Below are positions 720 through 26,476 of a stretch of 52,740 nucleotides of DNA, in pieces (position 1 is the first letter of the stretch; the number at the start of each line of letters is the position of its first letter). This DNA comes from a bacterium (GTDB lineage: Bacteria > Actinomycetota > UBA4738 > HRBIN12). A program made the translations under genes and the position numbers. Under the pieces are notes generated by a model. The model was given only the letters and a program-made list of their open reading frames with translations, was not told where the DNA came from and ran no database searches. The DNA lies in assembly GCA_023251895.1 (NCBI GenBank), contig JAHEXX010000001.1:18965-71704 (forward strand). Reading direction: 5' to 3'.

Positions 720-1023
720 ACAAACCCCCTAGGTCGTCCCCGGTCGCGTGGAGGCCGTCCGCGCGCCTCCGAGTCCGGTCCGAGTATCCGAAGACAGACA
801 CATTAGTCGGATTGACTCAAGGAGGGGCACGGCCAAACTGGCACCCTCGCCGAGGGAGGTCTCGGCGAGCGGGCAGTGGGGTGACCTGGACGATCGGAAG
901 TCCGGGGACGGTCTCCTTAACCGGCCGGATTGGCCTCTCCTTGCGGAAACGGGCGTTCTGCGAACAGACTTGCTAACGACTTCGGTTCGTTCCAACCGGC
1001 AGACATCGGGAGATTCCAGGACC

Positions 1024-1111
1024 GAGCACCGGATCGCCTTTAGCGGAGCTAACCCTTGGTGCGAGAGGGGGGATTCGAACCCCCACGCCCTTTCGGGCAC
1101 CGGATCCTAAG
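1024..1111. repeat. Left copy of the 88-bp direct repeat (att-like); 1057-1111 is an orphan 3' fragment of tRNA-Leu (minus strand)
   Basis: Base-for-base identical to 26356-26443 (offset 25,332 bp). Identity ends at 1023/26355 and at 1112/26444. No tRNA 5' half follows this copy. Confidence 0.9.
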
Positions 1112-1694: not shown

Positions 1695-3275
1695 ATGACC
1701 AGAAACGGCGGAAGCCAGGGAGGAGAGGAGGTCGACGTGCCGATCGAACTCGACGACATCAGCGTTGGGAAGGTCGACTTCATCGAGAAGTACGACCTTT
1801 GGACCGATGAGCAGAAGCAGGCGGCAGGGAGGGTCAACGAGCTGGTCAAGGGGGGGGACTTCCGGACCGTCCGCGTCTCGTGGCCGGACCAGCACGGCAT
1901 CCTGCGCGGCAAGACCCTGACCAGCAACGCCTTTCTTCACGCAATGAGGAACGGCCAGGACATGCAGACCGCCGTGCTGATCATGGACACCGTCAACAGG
2001 ATCATCTTCCCGCTGTTCCGCACAGGTGGTGGCTTCGGCATTCCGGAGATGTCCGGGTACCCGGACATGATCCTCGTCCCCGATCCGCTGTCGTTCCGCG
2101 AGTTGCCGTGGGCGCCTGGCACCGGGTGGTGCCTGTCGGACGCGTACTTCCAGAACGGCAAGCCGGTTCCCTTCTCGAGCCGGTACGTCATGCGCCAGTG
2201 GCTGCAGAAACTCGCCCAGGAGGGGTACGAGTACGTCTCTGGGCTGGAGGTCGAGTGGTACATCACCAAGCTCGAGGATCCCATGCTGCTGCCCGAGCAG
2301 TCCGGGTGGCCGCCCGAGCCACCGAAGGTGCGCGCCGTCGCCCACGGCTTCCAGTACCTGACCGAGACGCGCCAGGACGAGATTGACGACATCCTCTCAA
2401 TCCTCGAGAGGCAGCTGGGGGACGTCGGCCTACCTCTGCGCACGATGGAGGACGAGTGGGGCCCGGGGCAGTGCGAGTTCACGTTCGACCCGCGGAAGGG
2501 CATGGAGTCTGCCGACAACATGGTCCTGTTCCGCACGGCCGCGAAGCAGATCTGCCGCCGGAACGGGTACCACGCTACCTTCATGTGCAGGCCGAACCTC
2601 GAGAACTTCTTCTCGAGCGGCTGGCACCTGCACGAGTCCCTCCGCGCCATCGAGACCCAGGACAACGCCTTCACCAACCGGACCGAGGATGGGGAGTGGG
2701 GTACCGGGGAATGGCTGTCGGAGGTCGGCAGGTACTTCACCGGGGGGCTTCTCCAGCACGCCGCTGCACAATGCGTGTTCTCCACGCCGTCGATCAACGG
2801 GTACAAGCGGTTCAGGCCGGAGTCTTTCGCCCCGGACAAGATCACCTGGGCGTTGGAGAACCGCGCTGCATACATCAGGGTGTGCAGCAACGGGCCCGGC
2901 GACGAGGCGGCGCACATCGAGAATCGCGCCGGTGAGCCCTCCGCGAACCCGTACCTCTACATGGCGTCCCAGATCATCGCCGGGCTCGACGGCATCCACA
3001 ACAAGATCGACCCCGGACCGATGGACGAGGAGCCCTACGTCGTGGACAAGCCGCTCCTGCCCCGGAGCCTCATGGACGCGCTGGAGGCGCTGAAGAAGGA
3101 CACCGTGTTCCGGGAGGCGCTCGGCGAGCCCTTCATGGAGTTCATCACCGCGTGCAAGGACTCGGAGATCGGGGCCTACCTCGCTTCCGTGACCGGAGAG
3201 GACGGGGTCGTCCAGGAGGACCACCTCACCAACGTGACCCCGTGGGAGCACCAGGAGTACTTCGAGGTGTACTGA
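1695..3275 (+). CDS. Glutamine synthetase family protein (GS-like ATP-dependent gamma-glutamyl ligase; substrate unknown)
   Basis: Motifs: WPDQHGILRGK, CEFTF, GWHLHESL, NRAAYIR, HIENRAGEPSANPYL (GS catalytic-domain pattern). The in-frame GTG at 1737 has a better SD (GGAGG, then 5 nt) and may be the true start. Confidence 0.85.
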   Translation: MTRNGGSQGGEEVDVPIELDDISVGKVDFIEKYDLWTDEQKQAAGRVNELVKGGDFRTVRVSWPDQHGILRGKTLTSNAFLHAMRNGQDMQTAVLIMDTVNRIIFPLFRTGGGFGIPEMSGYPDMILVPDPLSFRELPWAPGTGWCLSDAYFQNGKPVPFSSRYVMRQWLQKLAQEGYEYVSGLEVEWYITKLEDPMLLPEQSGWPPEPPKVRAVAHGFQYLTETRQDEIDDILSILERQLGDVGLPLRTMEDEWGPGQCEFTFDPRKGMESADNMVLFRTAAKQICRRNGYHATFMCRPNLENFFSSGWHLHESLRAIETQDNAFTNRTEDGEWGTGEWLSEVGRYFTGGLLQHAAAQCVFSTPSINGYKRFRPESFAPDKITWALENRAAYIRVCSNGPGDEAAHIENRAGEPSANPYLYMASQIIAGLDGIHNKIDPGPMDEEPYVVDKPLLPRSLMDALEALKKDTVFREALGEPFMEFITACKDSEIGAYLASVTGEDGVVQEDHLTNVTPWEHQEYFEVY

Positions 3276-3334
3276 TCCGCGGCATTGGTCCGGACGGTAA
3301 GGGCGATCATCGTCCGAGGAAGGGAGGAACGAAG

Positions 3335-3952
3335 ATGGCGCAGGGAGAGGTCGCACCCCAGGGGACGGCATCCATGGAAAACACGCCCGAGGTGACGACG
3401 AAGCCGCGAGTTCCGTTCTGGCTGGCCGTCGCCATCTCGGTGATCTTGACTTTCCCGGCGGCCCTCTACTTCGGCCGGTTCGCCATGCCATTGTGGGCGG
3501 TCTTCGTCGTGTGGGCCGAATACTTCGTGCTCGGGGCCAAGCCCGAGGCCCTGAAGGTCATGTTCCCGAACTTCATCTATGGTTCGCTGGGCGTGACCGT
3601 CGGAACGCTGCTTTATGTCTGGATCCAATCCTGGGGCCTGATCGACGACCCGAAGACGAACACGTTGTTCTCCCTGTGCGTCGCGTACTTCGTCCTCTTC
3701 TGCGTCCTGCTGAAGTCGATGGAGTTCGGCTGGTCGTTCGCGAGCACGGGCCTTCCCCTCTTCAACGGGGTGGCCCTGACGCTGGGCGTCTTCTTCACCG
3801 GGACGTACTGGCACCTGTTTGCAACAACGGACCTGTACGTCATAGCCTTGCTGTCCTCGCTCACCGCGATCGCCGCCGGGATCATGGGCGGGGTCGTGGG
3901 ATGGTTCAACATGCTCATTACGTTCCCAAGGACAGTGAGCAAGGGGGTCTGA
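3335..3952 (+). CDS. Integral membrane protein (DUF1097-like)
   Basis: ATG at 3335 is preceded by GGAAGGGAGGAACGAAG. The product has multiple hydrophobic helices (FWLAVAISVILTF, LWAVFVVWAEYFVLG, LFSLCVAYFVLFCVLL, IALLSSLTAIAAGIMGG). The family name is recalled, not verified. Confidence 0.6.
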   Translation: MAQGEVAPQGTASMENTPEVTTKPRVPFWLAVAISVILTFPAALYFGRFAMPLWAVFVVWAEYFVLGAKPEALKVMFPNFIYGSLGVTVGTLLYVWIQSWGLIDDPKTNTLFSLCVAYFVLFCVLLKSMEFGWSFASTGLPLFNGVALTLGVFFTGTYWHLFATTDLYVIALLSSLTAIAAGIMGGVVGWFNMLITFPRTVSKGV

Positions 3953-4067
3953 ACCAGGCCGTGGCATGAGGAACGGCGCGAGGCCGCACCGATTCCCCCG
4001 ATGAGTGGGAGCGGTCTCGGGTCCGAGCCCAACGGCGACGGCACCGACAGGGCCACGGAGGCGCGAC

Positions 4068-4646
4068 GTGAGCGAGAGATCCGATGGCGAGAAGAACGAT
4101 TTCATGGGGACGAAGCCAACTCCCATGTCGGCACGAGAGATGAACGAGTTCCTCCAGAAGCCCTGGATCGCCAAGATCGCCTGCCTGACCCCGGACGGCT
4201 CGCCCTACATCGCCGCCAGCTGGTACCACTGGGACGGCGTGGCGTTCTGGGTGGTGCCCCGGGCACGGTCCGAGTGGGCCCATTACCTGGCTCGCGATCC
4301 GCGAGTGCACCTCCTGATCGACGACCCCAACCCTCCGCTCTCCAAGGTCCTCTGCGAGGGGACCGCGGTGATCGTTGAGGCGGCGGTCGGCCCCTATCTC
4401 GACACCGGGGAGATGTCGATCTGGAACAAGATCGGCACCAACGACACGGGGCCGCGCTACCTCGGGGAGCGCTCGAATGAATACCGGGGTCCCAAGAACG
4501 TCGAGCCGTGCTGGACCATCAAGATCGTCCCGAGGAAGATCACGACGGTGAAGTACGGCTTCCAGTGGGCGTCGCGGTACAAGCATCCGGAGCTGATCCC
4601 GGAGGATGAGGGTAGGGCAGAGGTTCAGCCCGTCTACTATGGGTAG
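4068..4646 (+). CDS. Pyridoxamine 5'-phosphate oxidase family (FMN/F420-binding split-barrel) protein
   Basis: WIAKIACLTPDGSPYIAASWYHWDGVAFWVVPRARSEWAHYLARDPRV is a typical PPOX-fold N-terminus. The GTG at 4068 is preceded by ACGGAGG; an alternative ATG lies at 4101. Confidence 0.65.
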   Translation: MSERSDGEKNDFMGTKPTPMSAREMNEFLQKPWIAKIACLTPDGSPYIAASWYHWDGVAFWVVPRARSEWAHYLARDPRVHLLIDDPNPPLSKVLCEGTAVIVEAAVGPYLDTGEMSIWNKIGTNDTGPRYLGERSNEYRGPKNVEPCWTIKIVPRKITTVKYGFQWASRYKHPELIPEDEGRAEVQPVYYG

Positions 4647-4688
4647 CGGCCATACGTCTCGGGGACGGCCCGCCAGAGCCGAGGCTCC

Positions 4689-5603
4689 ATGAAGATTCCG
4701 ACTGCGATCGTCGGTTCGGGCAATATCGGAACCGACCTTATGTACAAGCTTCTCCGTTCCCCGGTCCTGCAACCGGATGCACTTGTGGGTATCGATTCAG
4801 AGAGCGACGGGCTCAGCCGCGCTCGCGAGCTCGGTGTCGAGGCGACGCACGAAGGTGTCGATTGGCTCCTGTCCAGGGCCGACCGTTTCCGGCTTGTTTT
4901 CGAGGCGACATCCGCGAAGGTGCACGCCCGCCACGCTGCGCTGATCAAGGACGCCGGACTCATCGCGATAGATCTTACGCCCGCGGCGATCGGCCCCGCG
5001 GTGGTACCCCCTGTGAACCTCGAGGAGCACTTGAACGAGCCGAACGTCAACCTGATTACCTGTGGCGGACAGGCAACGATCCCGATCGTCGCGGCCGTCA
5101 CGCGCGTCTGTGCGGTCCCCTACGCCGAGATCGTCTCCGCGGTGGCATCGCGTTCCGCCGGTCCCGGCACTCGGCAGAACATCGACGAGTTCACGCGAAC
5201 GACGGCGAGGGGGCTCGAGACGATCGGCCGTGCTGGGCGCGGAAAGGCCATCATCATCCTCAACCCGGCGGAGCCCCCACTCATCATGCGCAACACGGTC
5301 TACTGCGCGTTGCCCGAGGGGTTCGACGCCGAGAAGGTAGTCGTCTCGATCGAAGAGATGGTCGCCGAGGTGGCGACCTATGTACCCGGCTATCGACTGA
5401 AGAGCCCTCCGATCATCGACGAAGGTCCGTTCAACACCACGGGAGGAATCGCTGCAGCTCGGGTGATGACGCTGCTCGAAGTCGAGGGCGCCGGCGACTA
5501 TCTGCCGCCATACGCTGGGAACCTGGACATCATGACGTCGGCGGCGGCCCGTGTGGGAGAGACGCTCGCGCGCATGCGTCTGGGAGCGGAAGCGCGGGCA
5601 TGA
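4689..5603 (+). CDS. Acetaldehyde dehydrogenase (acetylating), DmpF/MhpF type
   Basis: N-terminus [24 protein letters not shown], length 304 aa, and an ATGA overlap with the aldolase partner gene. Confidence 0.9.
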
Positions 5604-6616
5604 CACGTTCTTTCCGGCTCCTCGACAGCACCCTCCGCGACGGCTCGCACGCCGTTTCCCACAGCTTCACTCCGGAGCAGGCGCGGACGGTCGCGCGTGC
5701 ACTCGACGACGCGGGGGTCCCGGTCATCGAGATCGCGCACGGCGACGGTCTCGGCGGCTCGTCATTCAACTTCGGCTTCTCGCTCCACGACGACCGGGAC
5801 TTGATGCGAGCCGCCGCCGGCGAGGTGAAGAACGCGAAGCTCGCCGTGGTGCTTATGCCCGGGATCGGGGTGGCCGACGATCTGCACGAGGTGCGAGAGA
5901 TCGGCGTCACGGTCGCCCGCATCGCCACGCACTGCACCGAGGCGGACATCGCGGAGCAGCATATCGGTCTGGCGAGAGATCTGGGGATGGAAGCGATCGG
6001 ATTCCTCATGATGAGCCACATGAACGAGCCGGCCCCGCTCGCCGAGCAAGCGCGACTGATGGAGTCGTACGGCGCTCAGTGCGTGTACGTCGCGGATTCG
6101 GCGGGTTCCATGACTATGCCCGAGGTGCGCGCGCGTGTCGTTGCCGTGCGCGAGGCCGTTTCCTGCGACATCGGCTTCCACGGGCATCACAACCTGTCGT
6201 TGGCGGTCGCTAACTCCCTCGTCGCGATCGAAGAAGGAGCGACACACATCGACGGGTGCCTCTGCGGGCTCGGGGCAGGATCGGGGAACTGTCCGACGGA
6301 GATCCTCATCGCCGTTGCCGAGAAATTCGGCCTGTCGACCGGCGTCGATCTCTTCCGCATCATGGACGCCGCCGAGGAGGTCGTCCGGCCGCTCATGCGG
6401 CGGGCGCAGATCGTCGACCGGTCGGCCCTGCTCCTCGGGTATGCCGGTGTCACCTCCTCCTATCTGCTCCACGCCCAGCGGGCGTCCGCGCGATTCGGCG
6501 TCGATACGAAGGACATCTTGGTCGAACTCGGACGACGGAAGGTGGTGAGCGGGCAGGAAGACATGATCGTCGACGTCGCAGTATCGCTCGCCGGAAGGGC
6601 CGCTACCGTTACGTGA
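5600..6616 (+). CDS. dmpG: 4-hydroxy-2-oxovalerate aldolase, DmpG/MhpE type
   Basis: Starts [19 protein letters not shown] (the DRE-TIM aldolase signature LRDG). The ATG at 5600 overlaps the upstream TGA. The 584-aa form in the ORF track is an out-of-context upstream extension. Confidence 0.9.
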
Positions 6617-6682
6617 GGCGAGTGTTTCGCGTCGCGTTTCAAAGCGTTCTCGGAGTGGCCCGAGACGGATCATGAGGGAGCC

Positions 6683-7771
6683 GTGATCGACAACCACTGT
6701 CATCCGTTCTCGCTGGACGGCGAGCCGCTCGACCTGTCCGCGCTCTCCCTGGACGTGGGGCAGGAGCCCGACGCCGACGAGCGACGCCGCCGCATGGGGC
6801 CGGGGCGTGTGGCCGTGGAACTCCTCACTGCGCGCCTCGCGGCGAGGCTGGGCTGCGAGCCCGACGAGTTGGGCGCGGCCAGGGCGCGGGCAGCCGTGGA
6901 CTGGGAGGCGTACGTCTCGGGGCTGTTTGCGGATGTGGGGATCACGGCGTTGGTCATGGACCCCGCGTGGCCGGCCGGCGCCGCCGAGCACCTGGAGGAC
7001 TACGCGACCGTTTCCCACTGCTCAATCCATCCGATCCTGCGAATCGAGCCGATCGTCGATCAGGCGATCGGTGAGGGAGCGGGCGCCGAGGAGATTGTCC
7101 GCACTGTGCTCGATGCCATGGCGGACGCGGTCTCCCGCGGCTTCGTCGCCTTCAAGACCATCGTGGCGTACCGGACCGGCCTGGACGTCGACCCGCAGGC
7201 GACGCTACGGGACGCCCAGAGTTCGCTCTTACAGGACCTTCCGGTGGCCCGGCGCGGGAAGGCCCTCCGCGACCTGATCTTCCGCCGCGCCCTGGGCGTC
7301 GCGGCCGATCTGGGGCGTCCGTTCCAGGTCCACACTGGGATCGGGGACTCGGAGATCCGACTGCGCGAGGCAAACCCACTGCTTCTCGAGGAGCTTCTCC
7401 GCACCCCGGAGGGCTCCGCCGTGCCGATCGTGCTCATACACGGCTCGTACCCGTGGCACGACGAGCAGGCCTACCTCGCCGCAACGAAGCCGAACGTGTG
7501 GGCCGATATCTCGCTGTTCACCATCTTCTCCCCGGTCACCGTTGGTGACCGGCTGCTCCGTATCCTGGATCTCGCTCCGGCCGCCAAGATCCTTGCGGCG
7601 ACGGACGGCTACCAACAGCCCGAACTCTTCTGGTTCGGAGCCCACGTACTCGCCGAGGGGTGGGACGAGGCGGCGAAGCGGCTCGCCGCGGCCGGCGCCC
7701 GGAGCGGGTGGCTCCGGGACGTGAACCAGGCGTTCTTCGAGGGCAACGCCCGGACGCTATACGGCATCTGA
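6683..7771 (+). CDS. Amidohydrolase family protein (Amidohydro_2-like metal-dependent hydrolase/decarboxylase)
   Basis: N-terminal DNHCHP (HxH metal motif), later QVHTG and IHGSYPW. The GTG start is preceded by GAGGGAG. Confidence 0.75.
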   Translation: MIDNHCHPFSLDGEPLDLSALSLDVGQEPDADERRRRMGPGRVAVELLTARLAARLGCEPDELGAARARAAVDWEAYVSGLFADVGITALVMDPAWPAGAAEHLEDYATVSHCSIHPILRIEPIVDQAIGEGAGAEEIVRTVLDAMADAVSRGFVAFKTIVAYRTGLDVDPQATLRDAQSSLLQDLPVARRGKALRDLIFRRALGVAADLGRPFQVHTGIGDSEIRLREANPLLLEELLRTPEGSAVPIVLIHGSYPWHDEQAYLAATKPNVWADISLFTIFSPVTVGDRLLRILDLAPAAKILAATDGYQQPELFWFGAHVLAEGWDEAAKRLAAAGARSGWLRDVNQAFFEGNARTLYGI

Positions 7772-8409
7772 GCAGCGCGGACCGCCGACGCGCGTCAGCG
7801 TCCATGGCAGCCCCTGGCGCCCGGCCACCTGCTCACCGTCGAGCGGAACAGCAGCATCGCACTGCGCCGGGCCCCCACGCGTCCTCGATGGTCCGCAAGG
7901 GCGGACACGGGTTCCAAGTACCTCACGGAAAGCCGCAACGACGAGATCGGACGAGATCCTGGACATCCTCCGGGGGAACCTCCGCGAGTGGGCCTCGATC
8001 GCCGACACCTTGGGCTCCTCGGGCCCTACCCGTTGGCGGCCTCCTCCGGCTGCTCATTCCAGCCGCTATTTCTGGGCGAACCTGACCTTGCCGACGCTGA
8101 TGGCCTCGAGCCAAGCGCCCATCCCGCCCTCCTTCCTTGACGGGTCTCCAGCTCGTTGCCCAGACCGGATCTGAAGGGACCGCTGATCCAGTCCTGCCAA
8201 GTTCCCACAGACCTGGGAGAACGAGAACGGCAAGTTCTGTGCCGCACCGACCGCGCGCATGACAGGCAGGACGCCCCGAGCGTCCCCGTTCAAAGCGGAC
8301 CGCGACGGTCTGGAATGAGGGACAGGGGGCACGGGACTTGTCGCGTCGGGTCTCGCTCCGGGAGTCCGAGGCCGGGGATGGCGTGCTGGGGGCCTAGCAG
8401 CGGGCGGGC

Positions 8410-8733
8410 CTACTCGCCCACGACCGCCGACGATCTGACGTCGTAGTCGACGACGATCTCCTCCGAGCCGCGGGCGTGCACCCAGTCCGCGAACGCGCGG
8501 TGGGCCGGATGCGGGAAGTACCGCTCCGCGGCCTCCTGGTTCCCGAACTCGATGAGGAGCGCGTAGTCGTACCCGCGGGATCGCCCGCTCACATCCCGTC
8601 CGAAGCGCAGCCTGGAGAACCCGCCGATCGCCTCTGGCCACCGCTGGACCTGGGCGAACATCTCCAGCTCCTCGTCCTCGGTCAGCTGTCGAGGGAAATG
8701 GAACAAGACCAGATGCTGAATCGACTCCGCCAT
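8410..8733 (-). CDS. Dabb family (stress-responsive alpha/beta barrel) protein
   Basis: MAESIQHLVLFHFPRQLTEDE...YDYALLIEFGNQEAAERYFPHPAHRAF matches the Dabb pattern. It lies 13 nt downstream of the amidotransferase-like gene on the same strand. Confidence 0.75.
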   Translation of the reverse strand: MAESIQHLVLFHFPRQLTEDEELEMFAQVQRWPEAIGGFSRLRFGRDVSGRSRGYDYALLIEFGNQEAAERYFPHPAHRAFADWVHARGSEEIVVDYDVRSSAVVGE

Positions 8734-8746
8734 CCCGGCACTCTCC

Positions 8747-9466
8747 TCAACGCTCGATCCGAGCCGGCGCGGCGACGGCGGCTCGGCCCGGGTCGAGCTC
8801 CGCGACGTCTACCACGTGGATACGCTCCGTCGCCTCCTGGAACACGAGATCGAACAGGCTGTCGTCCCGCGAGTGCAGCTCCGTCGCGGCCATGTCGCCG
8901 TCATCGATCCCGAACCGCCAGACGAGGTTCGCACGGTGGCCGAACCGGACGAGGAGCCGGCCGTCCGCTCCCAGGTATCCAAGGTTCGCGCTGCCCCCCA
9001 GCCGGTCAACGACTTCGTGCAGGGCGGCCGGAACATCCGGGGAATGAGGGAGCAGCTCCTCGAACAGCCGGAAGGCGATCTCGCTGTCAGCGCTCCCATG
9101 GAGCCGGCCCGCGAAACCGGGTCGGTACCGCTCATGCCGGTGGAAGGAGCCGTTGTGGCAGAACGCGAACCGGCCTTCCCCTTGCAGGAAGGGTTGCGTG
9201 TCGGCGAGCTGCGTCGTCGAGAGCCGCGAAGGCCTGCGAAGGTGAACCAGGAACCGCGTGGAAACGACCGATGCGAGCTCGAGCCGTCCCCTGCGATCCC
9301 CCGCGACCGCCCCGGCGCACCGATATGCTTCGACGAATCCGCCAGAGAGCCAGGCGACCCCCCACCCGAACCCGGCCACGCCAAGCCGTTCCATCTTCCG
9401 AACGTACGGGAGCAGGAGCGCGAACGGTCGCGGCTCCGGCCACGCAGCCGCGAGGATCTCACACAT
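8747..9466 (-). CDS. Class II (Ntn) glutamine amidotransferase-like amidohydrolase (YafJ/EgtC type)
   Basis: Mature N-terminus MCEILAAAW, with the nucleophilic Cys directly after Met. The ATG at 9466 overlaps the asnC-like stop by 8 nt. Confidence 0.8.
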   Translation of the reverse strand: MCEILAAAWPEPRPFALLLPYVRKMERLGVAGFGWGVAWLSGGFVEAYRCAGAVAGDRRGRLELASVVSTRFLVHLRRPSRLSTTQLADTQPFLQGEGRFAFCHNGSFHRHERYRPGFAGRLHGSADSEIAFRLFEELLPHSPDVPAALHEVVDRLGGSANLGYLGADGRLLVRFGHRANLVWRFGIDDGDMAATELHSRDDSLFDLVFQEATERIHVVDVAELDPGRAAVAAPARIER

Positions 9467-10019
9467 GGCGTTTCCCCCCCCAGGACTCTGGTTGCCCGTC
9501 TGCGAGGAGCGCGTCAATCAGGAGCACGTCGAACGCCTTGGGCGTCATCTCCCCCAGGCTGACGAACGTCTCCGTCCGATCGACGCCCGGGACGGTCCAG
9601 ATCCGTTCGAACAGCACGTCTCGGAGGTGAGCGGTGTCTCGCAGGCGAAGCCGGACGAGCAGGTCCTTCGGCCCCGTCACCAGGTGGACATCCTCAACCT
9701 CTGGCGTCTCTCGGAGGCGCTCCACCACCTGCAACTGGTCGGTCCCCTGGACAGCGACGACGCCGACGTAGACCACGAGAGGCGAGCCCAGCATCGAACG
9801 GTCTATCTCGGCGCGATAGCCGCGGATCACCCCCAGCCGCTCCAGCCGTGCGACGCGGTCGGTGATGGCAGGCGGCGACATCCCCAACTCGCGGGCGAGC
9901 CGGCGCAACGAGATCCGAGCGTCTATCGCGAGCAGACGCAGGATGGCCAAGTCTGTGGCATCAAGCGCACGGCGGCCGCGGCCCTCCGCGTTTGCCGCGC
10001 TACCCGTCTGCTCACTCAT
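9459..10019 (-). CDS. AsnC/Lrp family transcriptional regulator
   Basis: LDATDLAILRLLAIDARISLRRLARELGMSPPAITDRVARLERLGVIRGY (HTH) followed by an RAM-like domain. It is divergent from the aminotransferase across an AT-rich 135-bp gap. Confidence 0.85.
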   Translation of the reverse strand: MSEQTGSAANAEGRGRRALDATDLAILRLLAIDARISLRRLARELGMSPPAITDRVARLERLGVIRGYRAEIDRSMLGSPLVVYVGVVAVQGTDQLQVVERLRETPEVEDVHLVTGPKDLLVRLRLRDTAHLRDVLFERIWTVPGVDRTETFVSLGEMTPKAFDVLLIDALLADGQPESWGGKRHV

Positions 10020-10154
10020 TTAGCAGGATTCCGCCCCGATTTCGATGTCAATCGCTGCGACTGTGGGGGTGAGGGAGACGCATTTCATCTACTACGTATA
10101 TCGATTAGGTTACACTTTTCAAGTTAGCCTGTCGATGACCCGGAGGCAAACGTC

Positions 10155-11378
10155 ATGACCAGCGACGGAACTGCCACTGCGGAGTGGGGACGGATCCTCG
10201 CCTCGCGAACCGGCGCCGGCGTGGGAGAAGGCCTCGCCTCAATCCTGTCACTCTCGGGAGCGGGCGACGTGATCTCCTTCTCCGGGGGCTTCCCCGACCC
10301 CGCGACCTTCCCGGGCGAGGTGCTGGCGGATATCGTGCGCGAACTCGTCCTGTCGGGCGACGCGTCCGCCTTCCAATACGGGCCGACGGAGGGCCTGCCC
10401 GGCCCCCGGGATTTCATCGCGGGGCGTCTGCAGGACCGCGAGGGGCGGCGTCCCGAGGATCGGGAGCTGGTCATCACGAGCGGGGCAATCGAGGCGCTCG
10501 AGCTCCTAGGGAAGGCTTGCCTGGACCGGGCCGACGTCGTGCTGGTGGAGGCCCCCACCTACCTCGGAGCGATCATGGCCTTTCGGAGCTTTGAGACCGA
10601 CGTCCGCGCCGTCCCGATCGACGACGACGGGCTCCGCGTCGACCTGCTCGAGCAGGCGCTCTCCGTGGGAGAGCGTCCCAAGCTCCTGTACACCATCCCA
10701 GACCATCAGAACCCCGCTGGGGTGAGCCTGTCGATGGAGCGGCGCCTGGCGCTGGTGGATATGGCTCGCCGATACGGTCTGCTCCTGATTGAGGACGTGG
10801 CGTACCGAGAGATGGGGTTCGGCTCCGAGCGGCCGGACAGCCTGTGGGCGCTCGCGCCCGACTCTGTGGTTCAGGTCGGCACCTTCTCGAAGACGTTCTT
10901 CCCCGGCGTCCGCCTGGGCTGGGCGGTCGGCCCCCCGCAGGTGGTGACGGAACTCGTCCGAGCGAAGCAGGTCACCGACCAGTGCGCGGGAGCGCTCGGG
11001 CAGCGGCTCCTTGAGGAGTACGGGCGTCGCGGTCTGCTAGAAGCCCAGAATGAGCGAGCCCGAGCACTCTATGGGGCGCGCTGCAGGCTACTCCTCGACG
11101 CCCTCGAGAACGAGATGCCGGCCGGGGTCGCGTGGACGCGGCCAGGCGGGGGCTTCTTCACCTGGCTCACGTTGCCCGAGGGCGTGAGCGCGGTGGCTCT
11201 CGCCGAGCGGGCCATGGAGCAGCGGGTGGCCTTCGTCCCCGGGCCACCCTTCTTCCCCGACGGGCAGGGGGATAGCAACTTGCGGCTGGCGTTTAGCCGG
11301 ATCCGCGAGGACGACATCGTCGAGGGAGCACGTCGTCTGGGCGTAATGATTCGGCGCGCGATGGAGGGAGGAGCGTGA
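10155..11378 (+). CDS. PLP-dependent aminotransferase (class I/II fold, 2-aminoadipate/LysN-like)
   Basis: YGPTEGLPGPR, TSGAIEAL, NPAGVSL, and GTFSKTFFPGVRLGW (the PLP lysine). GGAGG lies 8 nt upstream of the ATG. Confidence 0.85.
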   Translation: MTSDGTATAEWGRILASRTGAGVGEGLASILSLSGAGDVISFSGGFPDPATFPGEVLADIVRELVLSGDASAFQYGPTEGLPGPRDFIAGRLQDREGRRPEDRELVITSGAIEALELLGKACLDRADVVLVEAPTYLGAIMAFRSFETDVRAVPIDDDGLRVDLLEQALSVGERPKLLYTIPDHQNPAGVSLSMERRLALVDMARRYGLLLIEDVAYREMGFGSERPDSLWALAPDSVVQVGTFSKTFFPGVRLGWAVGPPQVVTELVRAKQVTDQCAGALGQRLLEEYGRRGLLEAQNERARALYGARCRLLLDALENEMPAGVAWTRPGGGFFTWLTLPEGVSAVALAERAMEQRVAFVPGPPFFPDGQGDSNLRLAFSRIREDDIVEGARRLGVMIRRAMEGGA

Positions 11379-11821
11379 TGGAGGACGAATATTTCGCGAT
11401 GCAGGCCGGGCCCCCGGGTGTGGCGCAGGGTCTGGGCCGCTACTTCGACGTGGACGCGATCGCCCCGGTCGAGTTTGCGCGGGGGCTGGCGTTCCGGCCC
11501 GTGCTCGGGGAGCGGCTCCTCGTGAACTTCGTTCGCTACGATCCCCACTCGGTGGCCCCCATGCACGCCCACGAGGAGGAACAGGTGACCTTCGTGGTTG
11601 AGGGCGAATTCGAGTTCGACCTCGACGGGGACGTGCGGACGATGCGCGCGGGGAACGCCGTCCTGATCCCGCCCCACGTCCCCCACGGCGCCCGAACGCT
11701 CGACACCCCCTGCTTCGAGATCGATGTGTTCTCGCCACCCCGCCGAGCCTTGATCGAGGCCGCTCGTCGGGCCGCGGCGACCGATGCTGTGCCTAACGGG
11801 GGCACGGAGAGCGAACCGTGA
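11375..11821 (+). CDS. Cupin domain protein
   Basis: PMHAHEEEQVTFVVEGEFEFDLDG...IPPHVPHG are the two-motif cupin metal ligands. The GTG/ATG start overlaps the upstream stop. Confidence 0.75.
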   Translation: MMEDEYFAMQAGPPGVAQGLGRYFDVDAIAPVEFARGLAFRPVLGERLLVNFVRYDPHSVAPMHAHEEEQVTFVVEGEFEFDLDGDVRTMRAGNAVLIPPHVPHGARTLDTPCFEIDVFSPPRRALIEAARRAAATDAVPNGGTESEP

Positions 11822-12609
11822 GCGATGTGGCACCCGCGCTCCTCGGCCGGAAGGCCGTCGTCACGGGCGGGTCGAAAGGCCTTGGTCGCGCAATCGCGGC
11901 GGAGCTCGCATCCCACGGCGCCGACGTCGCTGTGTGCGCCCGGGGCAGTGATGCATTGGCCATCGCGGCCGGGGAGCTGCGAGCGAGCGGTCGCGTGATC
12001 CACGCGCAGGTCGCCGACGTCACGGTCGCGGAGCAGGTCCGGGACTTCGTCGCTGCGTCCGCCGAGGCGCTGGGCGGGATCGACATCCTCGTGAACAACG
12101 CCGGTGCGGCGCACCCGGGGACGTTCGAGACACTCACGGACGGGGACTGGCAGGCGGACTTGGATGTGAAGCTCTTCTCGATGATCCGCTGCAGCCGGGA
12201 GGTTATCCCTCACATGCGGCGCCGGGGCGGGGGTCGGATCATCAACATCAACGCGGTGTACGGCCGCTATCCCGACCCCACGTTCTTCGCTACGTCCGTG
12301 AACCGGGCTGCCTGCCTGGCCTTCACGAAGACCCTCGCTGTGCAACTCGCCCCGGCGGGGATCCTGGTCAACAGCGTGAACGTAGGGTTCGTCGTGACCT
12401 CGCAGTGGAAGAACATCCACCGGCAACGAGCCCCGGCGATGAGTGAGGAGGAGTTCTTCGAAGGCATGGCGCGCGGCGAGGTCCCCCTAGGGCGCTTCGG
12501 CCGGCCGGATGAGGTCTCCGGGATCGTGACGTTCCTCGCCGGCGATCGGGCCTCCTACATCACCGGGGCGTCGATCGACGTCGCCGGCGGCATGGGAAAG
12601 TACGTTTGA
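11818..12609 (+). CDS. SDR family oxidoreductase
   Basis: GRKAVVTGGSKGLGRAIA (TGxxxGxG) and NNAG. GTGA overlap with the cupin gene. Confidence 0.85.
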   Translation: MSDVAPALLGRKAVVTGGSKGLGRAIAAELASHGADVAVCARGSDALAIAAGELRASGRVIHAQVADVTVAEQVRDFVAASAEALGGIDILVNNAGAAHPGTFETLTDGDWQADLDVKLFSMIRCSREVIPHMRRRGGGRIININAVYGRYPDPTFFATSVNRAACLAFTKTLAVQLAPAGILVNSVNVGFVVTSQWKNIHRQRAPAMSEEEFFEGMARGEVPLGRFGRPDEVSGIVTFLAGDRASYITGASIDVAGGMGKYV

Positions 12610-12856
12610 CGGGAGGCGGAACGACCTAGCCATTAGTGAGCGAGCCTCCGACCGACCAGCTTGGGTGTCCCGCGAGGCGCACGGTTCCTGCACTTGGCTC
12701 CACCGACGGCAATGTGTCCCCAGCTGCCGCGCATCTCCCGTACGTCCCGTTCGATCGGCTCGGCGTTTGGATTCCTTCCCGGGGCACAGGTCCGAGTTGG
12801 TCCCTTGGTCCATGCCAGGGAGCACAGGCCGCTCGGCGGGGGTCCGGCACCACCTG

Positions 12857-12930
12857 AGGTTTTGACACCGCTCCGGCTGATCTTTGACGTCGGATGATCT
12901 TTGACGGTGGCTGCGGATGATGCTTGACGG
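12857..12930. repeat. Four spaced (T/C)TTGAC boxes; three sit in a longer GAT(G/C)ATCTTTGACG-like unit, upstream of the transposase fragment
   Basis: gctGATCTTTGACGt (12876-12890), GATGATCTTTGACGg (12893-12907), GATGATGCTTGACGg (12916-12930), plus ggTTTTGACac at about 12859-12868. Confidence 0.5.
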
Positions 12931-12984
12931 CGGCCCTTCTGACCCTTCGCCTTGTCTCGGCCCCGGTCGAGGAGGGGGTGGGCC

Positions 12985-13179
12985 GTGCTGGTGGAGCTCA
13001 GCGTCATGGAACAGCCGTACCAGGCGGTGCTGGCGGTGGTGCAGAACGGCTGGAAGGTCGTCGAGGTCGCCCGGCGACTCGGAGTCAGCAAGCCTCGTCG
13101 CGACAAGATTCGCCAGATCGTAGCCGCCGATGGGGCGCGGCCAGGCAGAGACCCCCAGCGGCAGCCACCCGATCCCTGA
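12985..13179 (+). pseudogene. IS481-like transposase, N-terminal HTH fragment only
   Basis: VLVELSVMEQPYQAVLAVVQNGWKVVEVARRLGVS resembles the N-terminus of actinobacterial IS481-family transposases (recalled). The GTG is preceded by GAGGAGGGGG. The frame ends after 64 codons with no DDE domain. Confidence 0.6.
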
Positions 13180-13185
13180 GCCTCA

Positions 13186-13212
13186 GGTGACGCCGGAGCG
13201 TCCGGCGTCACC
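13186..13212. other. Perfect 12-bp-stem hairpin (GGTGACGCCGGA gcg TCCGGCGTCACC) at the junction of two IS fragments
   Basis: Read directly from the sequence; it starts 7 nt after the stop of the transposase fragment. Confidence 0.7.
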
Positions 13213-13265
13213 CAGAACACGACACTGGTCCGTGCCCCCGGGAGTGTGGAGCTGACGGTGTTCGC

Positions 13266-13385
13266 TCACACCGGACTCGTGGTTTTCTCGCGGGGTCTCT
13301 TATAGGGCGTCTGGCCCCCGAGCCCCCAGTGTGGACGGTTGTAGTTGTAGAAGTCCTCCCACTCCTGGAGGCGATCCCAATCGGT
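13266..13385 (-). pseudogene. DDE transposase (IS481/IS3-type integrase core), C-terminal 39-codon fragment
   Basis: Own translation: TDWDRLQEWEDFYNYNRPHWGLGGQTPYKRPREKTTSPV*. The FYNxxRPHxxLGGxTP tail is characteristic of rve-type transposases. A stop codon lies immediately upstream. Confidence 0.6.
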
Positions 13386-13564
13386 TCATCGCGGGGATCC
13401 CGGCAACATGGGTCCCAGTGTTCAGTATGTCGAATGGACGAGATTTCGCCTATCGGCCCTGACACTCGCCTTGTGCAGGCAATCTGTACGGCGCCGGGCC
13501 CGCGATTTGCCCTCCACCTGACCTCTGTTTAGTATCGCGAACGGTCCACTTGCCCTGGGGGTGC

Positions 13565-14737
13565 ATGATGAGGACACGGTCAGAAGAATCCTTGCCGTTT
13601 CGCCTGAGCCGACGGGACCTGCTTCGTCACGGGGTGAAAGGTGCAGGAGTCCTGGTGGCTGTCGGTCCGCTCTCAGCAATCCTCGCCGCGTGCGGAGGAG
13701 GGGAGAAGGGCGGAGGCGGCGGTTCTCCGACCGCAGGCAGCACGGGTCCTGGTATCACGGCTGCTCAGATCCAGAACGCGAGCGGCACCGTGAAAGTGCT
13801 GGGCTGGGAGTGGTACAAGGTTCCCGAATCGAACCCCCCGGGTCTCACGGTGAAATGGGGCTACCTGTCCGCGAACGAGGACACGATTACCAAGACCCAA
13901 CAGCCTGGGACGTTCGACTTGTTGACGATCTTTCAGGGGGAGATCGACCAGCTCCTCGCCGTGGACCGGATCGTGCCGATCGACGTCACTCTCATCCCCA
14001 ATTTCACCGCGATGAACTCAATGTTCCAGAACACCGATGTGATTCGGCGTGACGGCCAGGTCTACGCCGTCCCCTTCCAATGGGGCTATGCCTACGTTAC
14101 CTACGACTCGCGTCAAACGAGCGCGCCGACGTCCCTGGACGACCTCATGTCGCCCTCACTCAAGAAGAAGATCGGAGTTCCAGACGATCCCTACGCGGTC
14201 ATCACGACCTTCGCGAAGCTAACCGGATTCGACAATGCGAATCGGCTCACACCGGACCAGTTTCAGCAGGTCCTGAACACCATGCACGCATTCAAGCCAC
14301 AACTGCGAACGATATATACATACGGCGAAGCGCCGCAGCTGCTCGGGCGCCAGGACATCGCTATCGCGTTCCCGGAGTTTGGGCCGACCGTCCTAGATGC
14401 TACGAAGGCAGGAGCGGATGCCCATATGCAGCTGCTCGCCGCGTGGAGCTACGTCGATTGCCTCATGATCGTGAAGTCAACAGCCAACCTGGCTGGGGAC
14501 TACGGGTGGATCAATCAGGCGATCGGGGAGCAGTCGGAGGCCGCCGTGTCCGCGAACGGCCTTGCCTTCCCCGTGGTCGACGCTGCGGTCACGGCCCTTC
14601 CGAAATCGCTCCAGTACACGACCCCAACGGACATCCTGAATGAGGCACCGCTGCAGCCCGGCCCCCCGATCGACAGTAGTCAGGGCTTCGTCCCGTTCCA
14701 AGACTGGCTCAGCGCGTGGAATGACTACAAGTCCTAG
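13565..14737 (+). CDS. ABC transporter substrate-binding lipoprotein, spermidine/putrescine (PotD/PotF)-like, with a Tat-type signal
   Basis: SRRDLLRHG twin-arginine motif followed by the lipobox LAAC. The extracellular binding protein reads directly into the permease and ATPase genes. Confidence 0.75.
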   Translation: MMRTRSEESLPFRLSRRDLLRHGVKGAGVLVAVGPLSAILAACGGGEKGGGGGSPTAGSTGPGITAAQIQNASGTVKVLGWEWYKVPESNPPGLTVKWGYLSANEDTITKTQQPGTFDLLTIFQGEIDQLLAVDRIVPIDVTLIPNFTAMNSMFQNTDVIRRDGQVYAVPFQWGYAYVTYDSRQTSAPTSLDDLMSPSLKKKIGVPDDPYAVITTFAKLTGFDNANRLTPDQFQQVLNTMHAFKPQLRTIYTYGEAPQLLGRQDIAIAFPEFGPTVLDATKAGADAHMQLLAAWSYVDCLMIVKSTANLAGDYGWINQAIGEQSEAAVSANGLAFPVVDAAVTALPKSLQYTTPTDILNEAPLQPGPPIDSSQGFVPFQDWLSAWNDYKS

Positions 14738-16535: not shown

Positions 16536-17673
16536 TTCCACCGTCGAGGCGTCTGCCCAGGGCGCCGCCCGAACCCATGTTCCGTCACTCTTGTCCCTGC
16601 GGCACGTTCGCAAGGAGTTCGACGGGTTAGTCGCAGTCCGCGAGGTTGATCTCGATGTGCGGGAAGGAGAATTCATCACGTTGCTCGGCCCTTCTGGGTG
16701 CGGAAAGACGACGCTGCTGCGGATGATTGCCGGTTTCGAGCGCCCCACCGCTGGCAGCATCCTCCTGGAGGGCGAGGATATCGTCAGGTGGCCTCCCGAG
16801 CTGCGGCCCTTCAACATGGTTTTCCAGAACTACGCCCTCTTCCCTCACTTGACCGTCTTCGACAACGTGGCCTACGGCCTGCGCACGGCGAGAGTCCCCG
16901 AAGAGGTGGCTCGCCGGCGCGTGTTGTCAGCCCTGGAGATGGTGGGGCTCGAAGACCGTGCTGCCGTGAACGTGAAAGCGCTATCAGGGGGCCAGCAGCA
17001 GCGCGTGGCGTTGGTGCGGGCCATCGTGAACGAGCCCAAGGTGCTCCTGCTTGACGAGCCGTTGGGCGCCCTAGACCTCAAACTGCGCAAACGCATGCAG
17101 GACGAGTTGCGAGCGATCCAGCGCCGCGTCAACACCACTTTCATCTACGTGACGCACGACCAAGAAGAGGCGTTGGTCATGAGCCATCGAATCGTTCTGA
17201 TTCGGGATGGGCAGTTGGTGCAGGTAGGCACTCCCGAGGACGTCTATCAGCGCCCGCAAACTCGTTTCGTCGCTGAGTTCGTGGGCGAAGCCAACATGCT
17301 GGGCTGTTCCGTGCTGGGGCGGGAGGCGGACGGAATCCGCGTCCGTCTCGACCTCACCGGTTATGAGGCTGTTTTCGCCTACTACGGGAGCGATCGATTG
17401 GACCCCGGCGAGCCGGGGCTCGTGGCCGTGCGGCCGGAGCACCTGCACGTCGCGCCACCCGAGCAAGCCGACTTCGTAGGTCTGTTGGCAGGCCGCGTGC
17501 TTCTGGGTCCTGTCGTCATCTACGAGATTGCATTGGCCTCTGACTACGTGGTTCGCGCACAGGCCCAACCGACCGACAACGTCGAGATTGGGGCCCGTGT
17601 GGGAGTTTCGGTACTGCCGGGTCGGGGAGTCTTGGTTCACCGAGAGGAGAGCGCCATTGAGCCCACCGACTGA
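16528..17673 (+). CDS. ABC transporter ATP-binding protein (PotA-like)
   Basis: Walker A GPSGCGKTT, signature LSGGQQQR, Walker B LLLDEP. The GTG at 16528 is preceded by GGAGG and overlaps the permease stop. Confidence 0.9.
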   Translation: MFDSTVEASAQGAARTHVPSLLSLRHVRKEFDGLVAVREVDLDVREGEFITLLGPSGCGKTTLLRMIAGFERPTAGSILLEGEDIVRWPPELRPFNMVFQNYALFPHLTVFDNVAYGLRTARVPEEVARRRVLSALEMVGLEDRAAVNVKALSGGQQQRVALVRAIVNEPKVLLLDEPLGALDLKLRKRMQDELRAIQRRVNTTFIYVTHDQEEALVMSHRIVLIRDGQLVQVGTPEDVYQRPQTRFVAEFVGEANMLGCSVLGREADGIRVRLDLTGYEAVFAYYGSDRLDPGEPGLVAVRPEHLHVAPPEQADFVGLLAGRVLLGPVVIYEIALASDYVVRAQAQPTDNVEIGARVGVSVLPGRGVLVHREESAIEPTD

Positions 17674-17737
17674 ATCGCGTGCCCAGGCTCGTGGAGCCCC
17701 AAGGGCTGAGGTTGAAGCCGGACGTGGAGCGCAGTCG

Positions 17738-26332: not shown

Positions 26333-26355
26333 CCCTCGGTCTGGATCCCGGTGCG

Positions 26356-26443
26356 GAGCACCGGATCGCCTTTAGCGGAGCTAACCCTTGGTGCGAGAGG
26401 GGGGATTCGAACCCCCACGCCCTTTCGGGCACCGGATCCTAAG
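26356..26443. repeat. Right copy of the 88-bp direct repeat (att-like), overlapping the 3' 55 nt of tRNA-Leu
   Basis: Identical to 1024-1111. Confidence 0.9.
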
Positions 26444-26476
26444 TCCGGCGCGTCTCCCAGGTTCCGCCACTCTCGC
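26389..26476 (-). tRNA. tRNA-Leu (anticodon TAG), CCA encoded
   Basis: Reverse complement: GCGAGAG..CCGGA CTTAGGA TCCGG, long variable arm TGCCCGAAAGGGCG, GGGGG TTCGAAT CCCCC, then CTCTCGC A CCA. Total 88 nt and a full cloverleaf. Confidence 0.9.

Follow-up and report, generated by a model that had tools for sequence, protein, structure and literature searches.

A putative gamma-glutamyl-tagging gene cluster on an apparent tRNA-Leu island in Actinomycetota

What would a bacterium use a glutamine synthetase (GS)-like ligase for, when its gene is accompanied by those of a small flavoprotein, two amide hydrolase candidates, an aminotransferase and a DmpFG-type aldolase/dehydrogenase pair? This question is raised by a block of twelve genes at positions 1695-12609 of the 52,740-nt stretch of DNA that we analyzed (hereafter the window), i.e. 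positions 18,965-71,704 of the forward strand of contig JAHEXX010000001.1 in assembly GCA_023251895.1, from a member of the Actinomycetota (UBA4738; HRBIN12). On balance, and with little better than even confidence, we read the block as a cluster, acquired horizontally, for the catabolism of an amine-bearing, most likely amino-acid-like compound, which would be processed by way of gamma-glutamyl tagging. An earlier reading of the sequence (the original prediction) had proposed that the ligase puts the tag on and that a class II amidotransferase-like hydrolase of the N-terminal nucleophile (Ntn) type takes it off. The active sites of ligase and hydrolase, and their co-occurrence in other genomes, speak for this scheme, while the relatives assigned to the ligase, the roles given to the PPOX-like flavoprotein and the Amidohydro_2 enzyme, and the generality of DmpFG had to be revised.

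Genes were called from a six-frame listing of open reading frames (ORFs) combined with Pfam and NCBIfam scans, the domain scan of the ORFs covering 1-27 kb of the window, and all twelve predicted genes were recovered in this way at 1695-12609. Conservation was assessed in 80 loci of the ligase clade, collected by means of a clade alignment from one-genome-per-species contigs and representing the best 80 of 354 GTDB matches; their neighboring genes were scored by tblastn and de novo ORF clustering. Forty of these loci had full flanks, i.e. at least 5 kb on both sides of the GS gene. A reciprocal neighborhood check started from 86 PPOX homologues. One more contig, reached from the DmpG side (L091; Logan SRR23012455, 1-8817), was compared with positions 2600-12609 of the window.

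The ligase and its flavoprotein partner

The GS-like ligase is encoded at 1695..3275 on the plus strand and carries a Gln-synt_C domain (E 1e-75). Its best match in the Protein Data Bank (PDB) is 8wwu (E 3.8e-141); structures of true GS, GmaS and PA5508 match at 1e-46 or weaker (5e-20 for PA5508, 4hpp). The protein in 8WWU is NpaA1, the gamma-glutamylase that initiates the degradation of 1-naphthylamine and aniline (PMC11335346). In a MAFFT alignment the identity to NpaA1 was 45.9% over the full length, as compared with 27% for E. coli GlnA and 24% for PuuA, and the likeness to PuuA and GlnA2-4 drawn in the original prediction thus gives way to one with NpaA1. When aligned with GlnA, PuuA and NpaA1, the protein keeps all of the GS metal residues (E129, E131, E212, E220, H269 and E357), as well as the ATP and glutamate residues (H271, R321, R339, R344 and R359). 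The ammonium site is replaced, with Q91, V94 and F378 at the positions of D50, S53 and the flap residue E327; the corresponding residues are A, P and L in NpaA1 and P, V and Y in PuuA. Because of these replacements the protein is, as far as can be read from its sequence, of the gamma-glutamyl-ligase type and no bona fide GS, and the amine-glutamylating character attributed to it at the outset is retained. The Gln-synt_C domain and the full complement of metal, ATP and glutamate ligands would suit an ordinary GS paralogue for ammonium assimilation, but the score against the GlnA equivalog TIGR00653 is 207 bits where the cut-off lies at 429, the identity to E. coli GlnA is low, and D50, S53 and E327 are exchanged much as in NpaA1 and PuuA, so that we give this explanation hardly any credence.

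NpaA1 falls outside the GS-PPOX clade in a neighbor-joining tree, and the sequences thus place the window ligase in a clade that is sister to the arylamine ligases NpaA1, AtdA1 and TdnQ. The NpaA1 tunnel residues W235 and F86 are kept. F75, M81 and V201 have become M97, I103 and Y221, and the hydrophobic loop A69-P72 has become Q91-T92-A93-V94 (A69 to Q and I70 to T). Among 14 family members of 60-90% identity, the residues Q91, T92, A93, M97, Y221, T99, N101 and R226 are invariant or nearly so. Since the replaced tunnel residues are conserved to this degree, the clade appears to have an amine pocket of its own that is more polar, and the combination of Q91, T92, T99, N101, Y221 and R226 with W235 and F86 points to a bulky amine that bears polar or carboxylate groups.

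The pocket also bears on a rival explanation, namely an aniline-type arylamine pathway in which the cupin of the block would cleave the ring, the Amidohydro_2 protein would be ACMSD- or LigJ-like, and DmpFG would carry out the lower meta-cleavage steps. That NpaA1 is the closest characterized homologue and that W235 and F86 are kept would fit such a pathway, as would plasmid homologues of the ligase at 44-51% identity, which include Rieske-linked genes and genes of chloroaniline and linuron degraders; the exchange of F75, M81, V201 and the hydrophobic loop for the family-invariant M, I, Y, Q, T and N would not. Taking this together with the evidence on the hydrolases, the cupin and DmpFG given below, we regard an arylamine pathway as improbable.

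Two more distant plasmid homologues of about 51% identity, both from cultured organisms, have other partners. The one in Streptomyces tendae (L089) has a carbon-nitrogen hydrolase and a class I glutamine amidotransferase (GATase) as partners, and a 305-aa PNPOx-family protein, a ferredoxin and a flavin adenine dinucleotide (FAD) reductase are encoded in the same neighborhood. The one on pMNOD01 of Methylobacterium nodulans (L090) is accompanied by genes for the alpha subunit of a Rieske oxygenase, for a ferredoxin and for a reductase.

The steadiest companion of the ligase was a gene that the original prediction had treated as incidental, i.e. the one for the split-barrel PPOX/PNPOx-like flavoprotein (4104..4646, plus strand; PNPOx_N, 43 bits against a cut-off of 28). 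Homologues at 56-92% identity were found in 64 of the 80 loci, almost always immediately downstream of the GS gene, and in 33 of the 40 loci with full flanks. Seen from the PPOX side, a GS gene was located directly upstream in every context inspected, with stop and start codons touching or overlapping. The PPOX gene is the most conserved partner of the ligase. Because close orthologues (56-68% identity) exist in Gammaproteobacteria, which to our knowledge generally lack F420, the cofactor is probably not F420 but flavin mononucleotide (FMN) or FAD. An AlphaFold2 model of the protein (predicted local distance difference test score 83) retrieved in Foldseek only generic flavin-, F420- or heme-binding split barrels, with template modeling scores of at most 0.58. 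We presume that the flavoprotein is an oxidoreductase whose substrate is the glutamylated intermediate. In the cluster as we read it, the ligase would first attach glutamate to the amine of the substrate in an ATP-dependent step, and the flavoprotein would then oxidize or reduce the tagged intermediate, taking the place that PuuB or a Rieske dioxygenase holds elsewhere.

The ligase-PPOX pair is spread over Actinomycetota, Acidimicrobiia, Dormibacterota, Gammaproteobacteria, Binatia and Myxococcota. We tentatively propose, while thinking it somewhat more apt to fail than to hold, that the ligase and its dedicated split-barrel flavoprotein constitute an unrecognized two-enzyme module, which would amount to a new route by which a common natural amine is processed through gamma-glutamylation, with the flavoprotein standing where a Rieske enzyme or PuuB stands in other pathways. 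Such a module could perhaps represent the natural stock that gave rise to the xenobiotic aniline-dioxygenase ligases, and its actinobacterial versions would lead via transamination to a 4-hydroxy-2-oxoacid cleaved by DmpG. Literature searches found neither a described pathway of this gene composition nor a paper on a ligase-PPOX module, in agreement with the original statement that the combination was not a recognized one.

The gene between ligase and flavoprotein encodes a small polytopic membrane protein (3335..3952, plus strand), with 5-6 hydrophobic segments according to hydropathy. A membrane protein had been predicted here and is indeed present, although the family name attached to it was not upheld, the match to DUF1097 (E 0.0023, 18.6 bits) being below the cut-off of 24.6. 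L091 contains a copy that is 91% identical. The protein is a possible candidate for a channel or transporter. In L005, a metagenome-assembled genome (MAG) of Acidimicrobiia, an AmiS/UreI-type amide/urea channel gene (12275-12787) lies between the GS/C26 genes and the PPOX gene; the window membrane protein is unrelated to it and likewise sits just upstream of PPOX. A membrane protein gene at this place in both may hint at a small polar substrate.

Candidate hydrolases for the tag

Sixty of the 80 loci had at least one candidate amide hydrolase within 8 kb of the GS gene. Four families were represented, namely FGase (PF05013; 28 loci), Amidohydro_2 (22), class II Ntn (18) and class I GATase/Peptidase_C26 (13). 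The FGase loci are mostly gammaproteobacterial, with the gene order GS-PPOX-FGase, and the class I GATase/C26 genes occur in relatives from Acidimicrobiia. Such variety is the pattern expected of non-orthologous displacement of a single function. Hydrolases of the PF05013 and SCO6961 types have been proposed as gamma-glutamyl amidohydrolases in Streptomyces pathways (PMC9397018).

One of the two candidates in the window is a metal-dependent amidohydrolase of the 2QPX/FluG-N type (6683..7771, plus strand; Pfam Amidohydro_2). Its family profile matched only 2qpx in the PDB (E 3e-60), and H5, H7, K158, Y163, H217, H253 and D308, all invariant or nearly so in 11 orthologues, correspond to the binuclear site of 2QPX and FluG. 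This site comprises binuclear zinc, a carbamyl-lysine and a tyrosine in 2QPX and in the N-terminal half of Aspergillus FluG, a protein with a developmental function in which a 2QPX-type amidohydrolase is naturally fused to a gamma-glutamyl ligase of the GS-like kind; SCO6961 and SCO6962 are paired in the same way (PMC6478659). The fusion provides independent evidence that the two enzyme types serve one pathway. Since amidohydrolases of the 2QPX/FluG type are thus recognized partners of GS-like ligases, the Amidohydro_2 protein is by analogy a candidate gamma-glutamyl-amide hydrolase or amine-releasing hydrolase, and at least as good a candidate for removal of the tag as the Ntn protein.

The likeness to FluG, NodGS and SCO6961-SCO6962 (PMC6478659) extends to the series His, His, carbamyl-Lys, Tyr, His, His, Asp and to an operon shared with a GS-like ligase, but in the window the two genes are separate with four genes between them, and the ligase is of the NpaA1 and not of the PA5508/GlnA3 lineage. 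The comparison gives an association, not a reaction. It also gives rise to a further rival explanation, as the pair is the split form of FluG, a developmental protein, and the block could be a FluG/NodGS-like system for making or processing a gamma-glutamylated signaling or storage metabolite, rather than a catabolic one. Given the lineage of the ligase and its faint match to PA5508, and given surroundings of a catabolic type, i.e. the AsnC regulator, the aminotransferase, DmpFG and, in relatives, an APC permease, we find this highly doubtful.

The Amidohydro_2 family includes ACMSD and LigJ, which counts in favor of an arylamine pathway. An ACMSD- or LigJ-type decarboxylase or hydratase was nevertheless rejected as an identity for the window protein: only 2QPX was matched, the binuclear carbamyl-lysine site is present, and sequence and profile searches detected no similarity to ACMSD, LigI or LigJ.

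The second candidate is the stand-alone class II (Ntn, Cys-1) amidotransferase-like hydrolase (8747..9466, minus strand; GATase_4, 36.6 bits against a cut-off of 23), which starts with Met-Cys. M1-C2, H75-x-R77, H104-N105-G106 and D127-S128-E129 are invariant in 10 orthologues, and we take the Cys-1, Arg, Asn-Gly and Asp-Ser-Glu among them to be glutamyl-binding and catalytic residues, as in PurF, GlmS and EgtC. Searched against the PDB, the profile matched 3mdn, 1te5 and EgtC (2e-8), in this order and better than PurF and GlmS, and EgtC was the sole functionally characterized match. With EgtC the protein shares the stand-alone Ntn domain and the conserved Cys-1, Arg, Asn-Gly and Asp, but the similarity is distant, 3mdn and 1te5 matching better, and a context of egtA, egtB, egtD and egtE is missing. 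These features make it a candidate gamma-glutamyl-amide hydrolase or safety valve. In L091 the Dabb gene is next to asnC without an Ntn gene between them. The absence is consistent with an accessory role, and parallels the dispensable GAT-like hydrolase that reverses glutamylation in the aniline/naphthylamine system. The original assignment of the tag-off step to the Ntn protein is hence borne out by its Cys-1, its glutamine-binding residues and the EgtC match, but it has to be shared with an equal candidate, and L091 does without the gene. As far as the sequences go, either hydrolase could take off the tag. In the proposed third step one of them would do so, and the other would serve as a safety valve like AtdA2/NpaA2 or free the amine from a precursor.

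Proposed transamination and the DmpFG pair

The Ntn gene is part of a minus-strand operon together with the genes for a dimeric alpha/beta barrel (Dabb) protein (8410..8733; Pfam Dabb, E 1e-15) and an AsnC/Lrp-family regulator (9459..10019; HTH_AsnC-type and AsnC_trans_reg domains). According to the gene coordinates, 135 bp of divergent intergenic DNA (10020..10154), the presumed control region, separate it from a plus-strand operon encoding a class I aminotransferase of the KAT-II/LysN/multi-substrate type (10155..11378; Aminotran_1_2), a metal-binding monocupin (11375..11821; Cupin_2) and a short-chain dehydrogenase/reductase (SDR; 11818..12609; adh_short). The gene overlaps reported originally agree with these coordinates, with 8 nt (9459-9466) between the asnC stop and the ATG of the Ntn gene and 4 nt at aminotransferase/cupin and cupin/SDR; a third 4-nt overlap joins DmpF and DmpG.

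In the PDB the aminotransferase matches 1x0m/3aov (E 5e-88), LysN (7e-80) and human KAT-II (7e-33). The cupin matches 4e2g (3e-18), BacB (3e-15) and KdgF (2e-12), with gentisate dioxygenase reaching only 6e-4, and its sequence is thus closest to the BacB/KdgF types of 2-oxoacid isomerases and not to ring-cleaving cupins, which is a further point against an arylamine pathway. So is the amino-acid type of the regulator, of the aminotransferase and of the APC permease seen in relatives.

Among the 80 loci, the cupin was found in 21, AsnC in 16, the SDR in about 13 (orthologues of 60-82% identity), the class I aminotransferase in 12 and Dabb in 9. In Actinomycetota, Dormibacterota and unclassified MAGs the ligase gene is again accompanied by those for AsnC, Ntn, Dabb, aminotransferase, cupin, SDR and Amidohydro_2, albeit in varied orders. 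In L008 and L009 (GS 90% identical), the GATase4 gene precedes GS, the genes for PPOX, AsnC, aminotransferase, cupin and SDR follow codirectionally, and Amidohydro_2 is on the opposite strand. L081-L087 carry asnC-GATase4-GS-Dabb on one strand and, on the divergent side, genes for a cupin, an SDR, an IlvE-like aminotransferase, a CMD protein and Amidohydro_2; Dabb directly follows GS both here and in L075. L088 (Dormibacterota) shows GS, an opposite-strand GATase4, and then PPOX, cupin and Amidohydro_2, and in L098 the order GS-PPOX-GATase4-MR/MLE is convergent with genes for an aminotransferase, a cupin, an SDR, an APC permease and Amidohydro_2. In L061, L081-L088 and L098, genes for an aminotransferase of class I or IV, a cupin, an SDR, Amidohydro_2 and an APC permease are found in common operons. 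The grouping is no chance juxtaposition, because most of the genes, though not DmpFG or the membrane protein, recur next to GS homologues in other phyla. The co-occurrence asked about in the original prediction is accordingly seen in several phyla for the GS-like, Ntn and Amidohydro_2 genes, with Dabb, AsnC, aminotransferase, cupin and SDR recurring alongside them, whereas DmpFG is rare. In L081-L087 the class I aminotransferase is replaced by the IlvE-like class IV enzyme, and such a swap within the same type of operon supports transamination as part of the pathway. The SDR of L009 (14662-15415) was matched as two or three high-scoring segment pairs (HSPs) in different frames, which could reflect indel errors of the assembly or pseudogenization.

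The DmpF-type acylating aldehyde dehydrogenase (4689..5603, plus strand; TIGR03215, 440 bits against a cut-off of 282) shows the cysteine motif TCGGQAT in its translation, and the DmpG-type 4-hydroxy-2-oxoacid aldolase (5600..6616, plus strand; TIGR03217, 521 bits against 286) includes the communication domain DmpG_comm. The pair resembles DmpFG, BphIJ and HsaFG in its equivalog-level scores, its overlapping genes and this domain, but has no adjacent FAH-type hydratase, hydrolase or extradiol dioxygenase and is instead located between the flavoprotein and amidohydrolase genes. As had been noted originally for the ring-cleavage and hydratase genes, the ORFs scanned in 1-27 kb included no Rieske, extradiol dioxygenase or FAH-type hydratase gene; a reductase, a decarboxylase and an aldehyde dehydrogenase of an arylamine pathway were also missing from the cluster, and this counts against such a pathway. 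Pointing the other way, the nearest DmpG outside GS clusters (76% identity, L092) is in a Rieske/FAH-hydrolase/DmpF/DmpG context.

DmpFG had been taken as a general part of the combination, but the pair occurs in a single one of the 80 loci (L061), in addition to the window and L091. It is a rare add-on and no general partner of the ligase. In all three it directly follows the PPOX gene. L091, with DmpF and DmpG 90% identical to those of the window, has the order membrane protein, PPOX, DmpF, DmpG, Amidohydro_2, followed by Dabb and AsnC genes on the opposite strand and then aminotransferase, cupin and SDR. L061 is more remote (ligase 58%, DmpG 53% and DmpF/G together 53-61% identical); its operon starts with APC permease and AsnC genes, and DmpFG lies after PPOX and before GATase4 and Amidohydro_2. 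Since the two DmpGs are only 53% identical and that of the window has relatives at 76% outside GS clusters, DmpFG was apparently, in the simplest reading of the sequences, recruited twice and independently, each time into the same position. This speaks for a functional link in the lineages concerned.

Two further loci, L006 and L024, have an aminotransferase and an RraA-like protein encoded directly upstream of GS-PPOX-FGase, RraA-like proteins being members of the HMG/CHA pyruvate aldolase family. An aminotransferase beside a pyruvate aldolase is thus found in three lineages, twice with DmpG and once with the RraA-like protein. The recurrence of this combination with non-homologous aldolases supports an origin of the 4-hydroxy-2-oxoacid by transamination, which was also the view of the original prediction. 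In the fourth step of the proposed pathway, aminotransferase, cupin (as a 2-oxoacid isomerase type) and SDR would turn the skeleton into a 4-hydroxy-2-oxoacid, and in a fifth, in this lineage, DmpG and DmpF would split the latter into pyruvate and an acyl-CoA.

As to the substrate, circumstantial hints allow for an amino acid with an aryl or second amine (e.g. kynurenine), polyamine-like compounds, polyhydroxylated amines and D-amino acids. A kynurenine/anthranilate route was pursued and rejected. By NCBIfam, the class V aminotransferase-like neighbor of GS in Gammaproteobacteria is a SufS/VC1184-type cysteine-desulfurase-like protein and not a kynureninase, and kynA, kynB and kynU are absent from the window, which leaves the kynurenine idea as chemical speculation.

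A link to benzoyl-CoA degradation was likewise judged doubtful. Genuine NCBIfam equivalogs of boxR, boxC and boxB are divergent from GS-PPOX-FGase in 8-9 gammaproteobacterial loci, but the same lineage also has HyuAB, isochorismatase, HmuQ, FadD, TilS-like and UvrD neighbors, so that this looks like lineage synteny. The lineage with a divergent boxR-boxC-boxB-ferredoxin set (benzoyl-CoA epoxide pathway) comprises L048, L052, L057, L059, L065, L068-L070 and L095-L097, and several of its loci have genes for AdoMet decarboxylase and spermidine synthase after GS-PPOX-FGase.

A probable mosaic island, and known systems compared

The block appears to be part of a larger mobile unit. A 100-nt direct repeat occurs at 1012..1111 and, 95% identical, at 26344-26443. 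The left, att-like copy consists of a displaced 3' part of tRNA-Leu with its flank, and the right copy overlaps the 3' part of an intact tRNA-Leu(tag) gene (26389-26476, minus strand; repeat and tRNA together 26344..26476). Because the repeat duplicates the 3' part of this gene, the roughly 25.3 kb in between look like an island that was integrated into tRNA-Leu and holds the twelve-gene block as well as a second module. No gene for an integrase was detected within these 25.3 kb, and an Rfam scan of 1-27 kb returned tRNA only.

Probable insertion sequence (IS) remnants separate the two modules. A gap of 940 bp, which follows the SDR gene and precedes the ABC-transporter module, contains two IS481/IS3-type transposase-like fragments, namely an N-terminal helix-turn-helix fragment 'VELSVMEQPYQAVLAV...VARRLGVS' at 12985-13090 (plus strand) and a C-terminal fragment 'YNYNRPHWGLGGQTP' / 'FYNYNRPHWGLGGQTPYKR' at about 13290-13400 (minus strand), which were recognized mostly by eye and with weak BLAST support (E 0.058). 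In L091 the membrane protein, PPOX, DmpF, DmpG and Amidohydro_2 are 88-94% identical to the window, and the C-terminal part of GS, Dabb, AsnC, aminotransferase, cupin and SDR only 66-80%. These block-wise differences in identity suggest that the cluster was assembled from cassettes, by cassette exchange.

A number of observations weigh against reading the block as one catabolic cluster. The mosaic island, with its IS fragments and the identity blocks of L091, means that parts of it have separate histories. Only 3 of about 85 loci have DmpFG together with the cassette, the membrane protein has no homologue in any of the 80 scanned loci, and gammaproteobacterial loci with GS-PPOX-FGase alone show that aminotransferase, cupin and SDR are dispensable there. 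In L061 the DmpF, DmpG and aminotransferase genes (12223-14169 and 5968-7168) were matched as two or three HSPs in different frames, and these frameshifts could mean sequencing or assembly error or decay. Two or more hydrolases occur in one cluster, for which there is no certain explanation, and the Foldseek search with the PPOX model gave no functional clue. Finally, the ligase activity, the amine, the flavoprotein reaction and the order of the steps are all inferred from sequence comparison.

Much of this would be accommodated if only GS-PPOX and a hydrolase were functional, and DmpFG, the membrane protein and perhaps aminotransferase, cupin and SDR were passengers on a mosaic tRNA-Leu island. 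The scarcity of DmpFG and of the membrane protein, the plain gammaproteobacterial loci, the att-like repeats with the IS fragments, and the uneven identities of L091 all fit this alternative. It is harder to reconcile with the recurrence of aminotransferase, cupin, SDR and Amidohydro_2 beside the ligase in several lineages, in varied orders and with non-orthologous replacement of the aminotransferase, or with the position of DmpFG between PPOX and the hydrolases in two lineages whose DmpF/G have diverged so far, and we consider it unlikely, if far from negligible.

A catabolic cluster of the kind that we favor would resemble in its working the gamma-glutamylation pathways Puu, Pau, GlnA4 and Ipu and the one for aniline, but it belongs to none of these, because the defining partners of the aniline dioxygenase, Puu and meta-cleavage systems are missing. 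With NpaA1, AtdA1 and TdnQ (PMC11335346) the ligase has in common its catalytic residues, the lack of an ammonium site, W235 and F86 of the tunnel, a full-length identity of 46% in the case of NpaA1, and a candidate tag-reversing hydrolase encoded nearby. It differs in its separate clade with near-invariant tunnel residues of its own. The partner enzyme is a split-barrel flavoprotein and not the Rieske dioxygenase and reductase of AtdA1-A5, TdnQTA1A2B and NpaA1-A5, and the hydrolases are of the class II Ntn and Amidohydro_2 types instead of class I GAT-like. The Puu and Pau/GlnA2-4 pathways (PMC9397018) offer the same sequence of glutamylation, oxidation of the tagged intermediate, hydrolysis of glutamate and transamination that we propose, and hydrolases of the PF05013 and SCO6961 types occur with the window ligase clade; the island furthermore encodes a PotD-type ABC importer and a PuuR-like XRE-cupin regulator. 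On the other hand, the low identity to PuuA (24%) and the putative oxidase, a PNPOx-like split barrel rather than a PuuB-type FAD enzyme, set the block apart from Puu. Within 1695-12609 there is no DAO/FAD oxidase, Aldedh (PuuC), C26 (PuuD) or class III aminotransferase (PuuE), the aminotransferase is of the class I KAT/LysN type, and cupin, SDR, Dabb and DmpFG are additional.

Bacteria repeatedly resort to gamma-glutamylation when dealing with amines that are reactive or poorly metabolized, e.g. putrescine, ethanolamine, isopropylamine and anilines, but few of its substrates are known. The ligase clade abounds in metagenomes from soil, groundwater and freshwater, and belongs almost only to uncultured lineages. 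Knowledge of its substrate would give the dominant uncultured soil phyla a further route for nitrogen and carbon, and could show where the aniline-degradation ligases came from. It would also give a first biochemical handle on the FluG/NodGS-type partnership of amidohydrolase and ligase in fungi and plants.

The second module of the island (13550-25782) encodes a PotD-type binding protein, a fused PotB/C-type permease (631 aa) and an ABC ATPase, along with the PuuR-like XRE-cupin regulator, an MR/MLE protein, an M24 creatinase/prolidase-like protein, an M20 YgeY-type deacylase and a PDH/acetoin-type set of E1alpha, E1beta, SDR and E2. It may be functionally connected to the ligase block. Genes for E1alpha/beta (42-53% identical) are found beside GS-PPOX in 6-7 loci of Gammaproteobacteria and Binatia. 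A link via MR/MLE was dismissed, as the gene in L098 is only 27% identical to that of the island and none of the other loci has one.

Outside the island, the window contains a large Lhr-type helicase gene (29354-33589) in a region of 72-75% GC, and tRNA-Lys and tRNA-His genes (42968-43163). A class III aminotransferase gene and a flavin amine-oxidase-like gene, at 43304-44680 and 48789-50453 (minus strand), could bear on amine metabolism.

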